Source: a virus
Direction: 5' to 3' (one strand)
DNA length: 21,484 nucleotides
UHGV virus genome: UHGV-0095065
Part shown: positions 21,178-21,434 of the stretch, one piece after another
How positions within the stretch are numbered: position 1 is the stretch's first letter
How the letters are laid out: every line of letters starts with the position of its first letter
Program-made: the position numbers and the translations under genes
The notes under the pieces: generated by a model
The model's database searches: none
The model's input: the letters and a program-made list of their open reading frames with translations, nothing else
What the model was told of the DNA's origin: nothing

Positions 21178-21208
21178 GAAAATAAAAACAAAAACCCGCC
21201 GAAGCGGG
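21178..21208 (-). terminator. Intrinsic terminator of the hok transcript
   Basis: Minus-strand CCCGC-UUCG-GCGGG followed by UUUUUGUUUUUAUUUU, about 70 nt after the hok stop. Confidence 0.65.
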
Positions 21209-21278
21209 TTAAGTGCGGGTGCGTTGAGGATGCCTGCCACATCAGAGGTGGCGAGGGATTTCTCCCTCGCCGGGTCTC

Positions 21279-21434
21279 TTACTCCTCAGGTTCGTAAGCT
21301 GTGAAGACAGCGACCTCCGTCTGCCCGGTTCGGATTCGTACCTCGCAGAGGTCTTTCCTCGTTACCAGTGCCGTCACTATGACGGTTAAACAGATGACGA
21401 TCAGGGCGATTAACATCGCCTTTTGCTGCTTCAT
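21279..21434 (-). CDS. hokD: Hok/Gef family type I toxin (HokD/RelF-like, 51 aa)
   Basis: MKQQKAMLIALIVICLTVIVTALVTRKDLCEVRIRTGQTEVAVFTAYEPEE: single TM helix plus conserved C-terminal region typical of Hok; the track ORF extends 9 codons further upstream. Confidence 0.9.
   Translation of the reverse strand: MKQQKAMLIALIVICLTVIVTALVTRKDLCEVRIRTGQTEVAVFTAYEPEE

Follow-up and report, generated by a model that had tools for sequence, protein, structure and literature searches.

The closest characterised relative of the locus described here is hokW-sokW of Sakai prophage 5 (Sp5), an Stx2 phage in E. coli O157:H7. HokW is toxic and is neutralised by sokW, and this neutralisation depends on RNase III and Hfq (PMC8621323). 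Sok RNA is 71 nt long, is complementary to the leader, and is lost when the prophage is induced in a RecA-dependent manner. HokW builds up in the inner membrane about 1 h before endolysin, and the release of phage is halved without hokW-sokW, a modest, approximately 2-fold effect (PMC8621323). The paradigm for these loci is hok/mok/sok (parB) of plasmid R1, in the model of which the mRNA is locked by the pairing of two distant elements, tac and fbi (PMC9841398; PMC1635323). A Sok promoter mutation of R1 lies within the element dcb, just upstream of hok (Le Rhun et al., PMC9841398). In E. coli K-12 the leader of hokD (relF) has been replaced by relBE, and an ancestral hokD ORF of ~70 codons has been described (PMC6379469).

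The sequence analysed here, called the window, is the whole 21,484-nt stretch of the virus genome UHGV-0095065. Its end holds the downstream two-thirds of a hok/mok/sok type I module of the hokD/hokW type, which is intact in sequence and most likely follows the R1 paradigm; we put this reading at about 87%. The locus is already known, as hokD/relF, as hokW-sokW and as Rfam RF01794, and it is very common. It is a textbook, widely distributed module whose closest relative has been characterised experimentally, and it matters little for discovery. The practical gain is that the sok promoter and the fbi element are placed inside the window.

The toxin gene and its 3' untranslated region

The hok coding sequence lies on the minus strand at 21434..21279, starting with ATG and ending with the stop codon TAA at 21281..21279. 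Its product of 51 aa is MKQQKAMLIALIVICLTVIVTALVTRKDLCEVRIRTGQTEVAVFTAYEPEE. It matches Pfam PF01848 (HOK_GEF) with 82.9 bits and E = 1.2e-23, where the gathering cut-off is 22, and PHROG 251 (MokW-like host killing) with 114.7 bits. Both matches are far above chance, and both size and family are those of the Hok/Gef small membrane toxins of ~50 aa. A Hok/RelF-like toxin gene of 51 aa had been proposed here by the sequence-only reading, and it is indeed present. The NCBIfam Hok models score the protein under their curated cut-offs (48.5 versus 73), and they were therefore left out of the membership assignment. A tblastn search of the whole window finds no second Hok-like ORF.

The protein is identical to K-12 HokD at all 51 residues, and to the HokW-type protein of Stx2-converting phage I, which is of the Sp5 type, at 47 of 51 (92%). 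HokD is listed as a toxic control in a preprint (10.1101/2025.08.07.668861). The same preprint describes editing by TadA, which changes Tyr to Cys in hokB and is reported for hokC, hokD and hokE too. In the window, the codon of Tyr47 (UAC) is followed by G, and the resulting UACG within UUACGAA at 21296..21293 (minus strand) fits the TadA A-to-I editing motif. The base that such editing would alter is A21295.

Downstream of the stop codon, three elements follow one another on the minus strand. The nearest is a stem-loop, GGCGAGGGA-GAAA-UCCCUCGCC, at 21271..21250, predicted by folding to have 9 bp and a GAAA loop and extendable to 21279..21244. The next is the fbi element CCUCAACGCACCC at 21229..21217, located 49 nt after the stop codon. 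The last is an intrinsic terminator at 21210..21183, in which AACCCGC-UUCG-GCGGGUU forms a 7-bp stem with a UUCG loop (21210..21193) and is followed by a U-tract. The earlier description of a 3' stem-loop and a terminator is thus confirmed for both. The 98-nt 3' UTR as a whole is more stable than expected (z = −3.6), with only 1 of 200 shuffled sequences as stable. By analogy with the R1 model (PMC1635323, PMC9841398), the stem-loop at 21271..21250 may be the roadblock to trimming and the hairpin with which the processed, active hok mRNA ends at its 3' side.

Two further observations concern this region. Rfam reports an isrK match to the hok 3' UTR at 21189..21270 (minus strand), which is sub-threshold (25.7 bits versus 50, E = 0.0055). 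IsrK has its own promoter and belongs to a different locus without hok (PMC4825925). The likeness does not go beyond a common shape, two hairpins and a terminator, and an isrK-like sRNA derived from the 3' UTR was dropped as a candidate. Right after the hok terminator, about 80 nt upstream of rem, there is a promoter-like sequence TTGAAG-18-TAGAAT at 21170..21141 (minus strand), which may drive rem independently of hok.

The leader, the sok promoter and the tac/fbi pairing

The 3' third of the hok/mok leader occupies 21435..21484 on the minus strand, with in-frame mok codons. Rfam RF01794 matches 21484..21429 with 27.6 bits, covering model positions 105–157 only, and the match is flagged as cut off at its 5' end. 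That the window end cuts through the locus had been recognised from the sequence and is borne out by this flag. The match has the orientation of hok and stops at the hok AUG, and therefore RF01794 in practice models the hok/mok leader that is complementary to Sok. This part of the leader contains dcb (AGCCUC, 21471..21466), a hairpin UGCC-GAAA-GGCA (21460..21449) and the hok Shine-Dalgarno sequence GGAG (21447..21444), all on the minus strand.

mok shares its reading frame with hok, and this frame stays open up to base 21484. As had been anticipated, the start of mok is outside the window, though by just 7 nt: the mok ATG would occupy 21491..21489 (in locus coordinates 6147, with the window end at 6154). 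In the intact locus L001 and in contig L063, described below, the mok-hok ORF has 70 codons, and translation of mok may be coupled to that of hok. The in-frame ORF of 70 aa was already annotated in Stx2 phage I as ORF-33c. The structured hok/mok leader is recognised at full length in L001, where RF01794 scores 115.3 bits against a cut-off of 59; beyond the window end, L001 is the same as contigs L063 and L064.

The sok promoter is located inside the window, on the plus strand at 21448..21476. Its −35 element is TTGCCT (21448–21453) and its −10 element is TAACCT (21471–21476), with a spacer of 17 nt. It is identical to the sok promoter of the Sp5-type locus from Stx2-converting phage I, which in turn matches exactly all the hokW-sokW primers of Takada et al. 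2021. The hokW probe YO-597 of that study matches the window exactly at 21446–21475 (plus strand). The sokW −10 mutagenesis primer, YO-421, maps to 21452–21477 with its 4 designed changes. The sokW −10 element was inactivated by mutation in the same study (PMC8621323). The same sok hexamers are seen at the same position in loci of Escherichia, Kluyvera, Citrobacter, Pantoea and Photorhabdus. A generic scan of the window for the sigma-70 consensus does not report this promoter, which agrees with the consensus at 7 of 12 positions and is weak by that measure. The identification is based on the identity with the mutated sokW promoter, not on the generic scan.

The sequence-only reading had the sok promoter cut off by the window end, and this is wrong, since both the −35 and the −10 elements are within 21448–21476. 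Its broader statement, that the regulatory partner lies outside, holds for the body of the Sok transcript and for the mok ATG, and fails for the promoter. Sok would start at approximately 21482–21484 or just beyond. The Sok body (~71 nt), the mok ATG, tac and the hok promoter are thus all outside the window. In L001, the predicted fold of the antisense strand of the Sok region (z = −5.5) has a long hairpin between a single-stranded 5' tail and a U-rich end. Judged by sequence, the locus has both an antisense sok promoter and a Sok complementary to the mok initiation region.

The 5' end of hok mRNA in the relatives of the window locus is GGGUGCUUGAGG, the tac element, which precedes the hok ATG by 169 nt and lies 119 nt past the window end. 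It is preceded in these relatives by the hok promoter TTGGCG-17-TAGAAT, which in L001 stands before a GGGUGC start. The minimum free energy fold of the 419-nt transcript pairs tac with fbi (z = −7.7), and none of 100 shuffled sequences is as stable. To see the pairing across loci, the best partner of the tac 12-mer was searched for in the 170 nt downstream of hok, in loci taken from a collection of species-representative genomes. In nearly all of ~40 loci it is found at +45 to +56 after the stop codon. Standard base pairs make up 98% of the tac/fbi cells among 21 distinct sequence pairs. In controls with the partner shifted by 1 to 3 columns, the share of paired cells is 31–58%. Double-sided compensatory changes are seen at 3 tac/fbi pairs, U-A to C-G at position 4 and G-C to A-U at positions 11 and 12, and they occur across genera. 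This is the long-range pairing that locks the full-length mRNA in the R1 model. The fbi element inside the window makes sense only together with tac outside it. Duplex folding of 140 nt upstream against 170 nt downstream had given long, uninformative duplexes, and was replaced by the searches anchored on tac.

A short hydrophobic ORF of 30 aa, MVLVLKCALAITAVMAIYCLAIVLMDRLSD, is located outside the window, upstream of the hok promoter, at 3747–3839 of L001 (corresponding to ~5900–5992 of L063). It ends ~8 nt before the hok −35 element and has no Pfam match. It may encode a further small membrane peptide or have arisen by chance.

Integrity of the locus and its prophage setting

Two contigs contain the window end together with the sequence beyond it. 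L063 (ENA ERZ1745029, 120 kb) is 100.000% identical to the window over 14,906 nt, and L064, a human gut metagenome contig of 22 kb, is 100.000% identical over 10,401 nt; in both, the last base of the window is included. They were found by an exact-protein look-up with the DNA methyltransferase of the window. Given the complete identity over the overlap, the window probably derives from the same element as these contigs. A comparison of the whole window, or of its terminal 6.5 kb, with complete E. coli genomes gives no exact relative, the best being mosaics with 94–95% identity. The last 320 nt of the window are identical to L001, and for 300 nt past the window end L063 and L064 are identical to L001 as well. 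Each of the two thus has a complete leader, the mok ATG and the Sok region, together with tac and the hok promoter. The sequence-only reading had suggested inspecting about 300 bp beyond 21484 for the mok start and the sok promoter. On these contigs such an inspection does supply the mok ATG and a complete leader, and the sok promoter proves to be inside the window already.

The window covers the Q-to-head region of a lambdoid prophage, all on the minus strand. From hok, the genes are rem, an ORF of 92 aa, DUF968/ydfU, RusA, Q, a DNA methyltransferase, three tRNAs and a TerB-like gene, followed by a DUF1737 esterase-like gene, the lysis genes, terminase and portal. Many E. coli chromosomes match the final 1,085 nt with 100% identity, and the genes annotated there are hokD, rem, a hypothetical gene and ydfU. 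The 461-nt locus of phage mEp460_ev081, annotated as 'MokW protein', is 100% identical to that of the relatives of the window. In what is an mEp460-like lambdoid prophage, the hok module has the replication/cargo region on one side and the rem-ydfU-rusA-Q block on the other.

Farther from hok, the three tandem tRNA genes (16287..16538, minus strand; anticodons CAT, TCG and TCT) come after the genes for the Q antiterminator and the DNA methyltransferase, and no stx genes follow. tRNA genes downstream of Q are an arrangement typical of Stx-type and lambdoid phages. An STnc100 sRNA at 14649..14849 (minus strand), in the gap that separates the TerB-like from the DUF1737 gene downstream of Q, matches RF02076 at full length with 147 bits against a cut-off of 47.

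In the population, at least 80% of the 461-nt locus is present in 3,913 of 5,426 complete E. coli genomes (~72%). The leader occurs in 4,316 E. coli genomes; at least 80% of its length is present in 4,283 of these, and it is partial in ~1%. RF01794 is found at full length in all of 20 loci scanned except K-12, a K-12-like locus and L007. The last of these, from E. coli ECMA0423 (CP178302.1, 1947310–1949462), is a decayed hok locus in which the Hok ORF is 100% intact. Its tac is deleted, and an insertion of 1 nt breaks both the mok frame and the −35 element of sok. An intact toxin ORF alone is therefore no sign of an intact module.

Because the toxin is the same protein as K-12 HokD and the downstream neighbours rem and ydfU are shared, the locus might be of the K-12 type, with the leader, the mok start and sok replaced by relBE and with hok transcribed, at most, as the tail of the relBE operon. 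This has next to no probability. The alignment to K-12 ends ~17 nt upstream of the hok ATG, and at 21452–21484, where K-12 hokD diverges, the window has the sequence of the intact leader. The 50 nt upstream of hok are identical to the intact type at 50 of 50 positions, and to the K-12 type at 22 of 50. RF01794 has no match in K-12, whereas the window matches its 3' part. The window does not have relE directly upstream of hok, nor the loss of leader, mok start and sok, and relE is likewise absent upstream of hok in the contigs identical to it. The K-12 hokD interpretation was ruled out by this upstream divergence, and the K-12 reference is a truncated exception rather than the norm. Decay beyond 21484, by deletion or disruption of the leader as in L007, is very improbable, even though decayed copies exist and the distal 119 nt are not visible in the window. 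L007 differs already within the proximal 50 nt by its insertion in the sok −35, which the window does not have. These 50 nt are identical in the window and in the intact loci L001, L063 and L064, the two identical contigs have a complete upstream region, and partial leaders are rare among leader-bearing genomes. The earlier view that intact and decayed states could not be told apart from the window was over-cautious: the question is largely decided by these 50 nt together with L063 and L064. By sequence, the locus is intact and of the ancestral leader form, not the relBE-truncated K-12 type, and the appropriate annotation is an intact hok/mok/sok (hokD/hokW-type) locus, not an orphan toxin.

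Integrity of the sequence is no proof of activity, because the chromosomal loci hokA, hokB and hokC are unable to mediate post-segregational killing, according to work cited in the preprint 10.1101/2025.08.07.668861. The locus might accordingly be an intact, physiologically silent and passively inherited remnant, like these three. The modest effect of the hokW-sokW deletion on Sp5 would agree with this, as would the decayed copies with an intact Hok ORF in other genomes (L007 and the K-12 type L002 and L008). We consider it unlikely, as every regulatory element is conserved and the tac/fbi pairing shows compensatory changes, most E. coli genomes, and free phages too, have kept the module, and the closest tested relative, hokW-sokW, is functional. 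A different role can be imagined from the other side of the locus. In the identical contigs, a gene for a 449-aa PD-T7-1 anti-phage defence protein (L063, 4111–5460, minus strand; PADLOC 521 bits, no Pfam match) is located directly upstream of hok/sok, ~0.7–2 kb beyond the window end. The same slot was also compared in L060, L061 and L068; it contains SMODS and SLATT_4 in close relatives, and other genes in L062. The hok/sok module therefore adjoins a variable slot of defence cargo. That it works with the anti-phage cargo, as an addiction module stabilising the slot or as an abortive-infection effector, beyond being a lysis helper, is a very improbable speculation. A working module of the R1 type remains the preferred reading.

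Proposed mechanism and comparison with known systems

If the locus follows the R1 paradigm, a promoter outside the window, ~35 nt ahead of the mRNA start, would produce a hok mRNA of ~415 nt. Pairing of tac at the 5' end with fbi at the 3' end would keep the full-length mRNA closed, untranslatable and unable to bind Sok. Slow exonucleolytic trimming from the 3' end to the stem-loop at 21271..21250 would remove fbi, upon which the 5' end is expected to refold and expose the mok ribosome-binding site. Translation of mok, the 70-codon ORF in frame with hok, would then permit the synthesis of the membrane-damaging Hok of 51 aa. Meanwhile, a short and unstable Sok RNA would be transcribed from the promoter at 21448–21476 (plus strand), outward across the window end, and would pair with the mok initiation region, causing a block of translation and cleavage by RNase III. 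Decay of Sok, following loss of the element or RecA-dependent prophage induction, the latter as shown for hokW-sokW, would allow Hok to be made and to damage the inner membrane, with lysis aid or cell killing as the outcome. By homology to the tested loci, Hok of the window is expected to be toxic and to be neutralised by Sok. The transcription, the processing, the action of Sok and the biological role of the window locus are all predicted on this model.

Among the known systems, K-12 hokD of the Qin cryptic prophage has the same protein of 51 aa, a nearly identical 3' UTR, fbi and terminator (2 nt differences), and the same downstream genes, rem and ydfU. In K-12, the relBE insertion has taken the place of leader, mok start, sok and tac, whereas the window keeps the ancestral leader. 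The chromosomal hokC/mokC/sokC (gef) loci share with the window type an in-frame mok, the sequence of tac and the distance of fbi from the stop codon. The Hok of this system is ~82% identical to that of the window; its leader is shorter (tac at −150 versus −169), and the −10 region of sok differs.

R1 hok/mok/sok has the same set of elements: tac, ucb, the mok Shine-Dalgarno sequence with dcb, fbi, the 3' hairpin and the terminator. The overlap of the sok promoter with dcb is shared as well, and the RF01794 leader model fits the identical relatives of the window locus. The R1 system is on a plasmid, while the window locus is in a prophage. R1 mok is in a different frame from hok, whereas mok of the window type is in frame. 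The protein identity to R1 Hok is ~44%, a figure that refers to HokW versus R1 Hok (PMC8621323).

The closest of all is hokW-sokW, which is located in a lambdoid prophage like the window locus and has the in-frame mok-hok ORF of 70 codons. In the sok promoter region it agrees fully with the window, to which YO-597 matches exactly, and its tac region is also identical, with YO-351 matching exactly in L001. Over the 461-nt locus the identity is ~94%, and Hok is the same at 47 of 51 residues. The C-terminal four residues differ (TAYEPEE versus VDYESEK), there are a few substitutions in the region of Sok and the mok start, and the neighbouring genes are different. The documented role of this closest relative is to aid lysis on induction, in contrast to the stabilisation of the plasmid by R1 hok/mok/sok.
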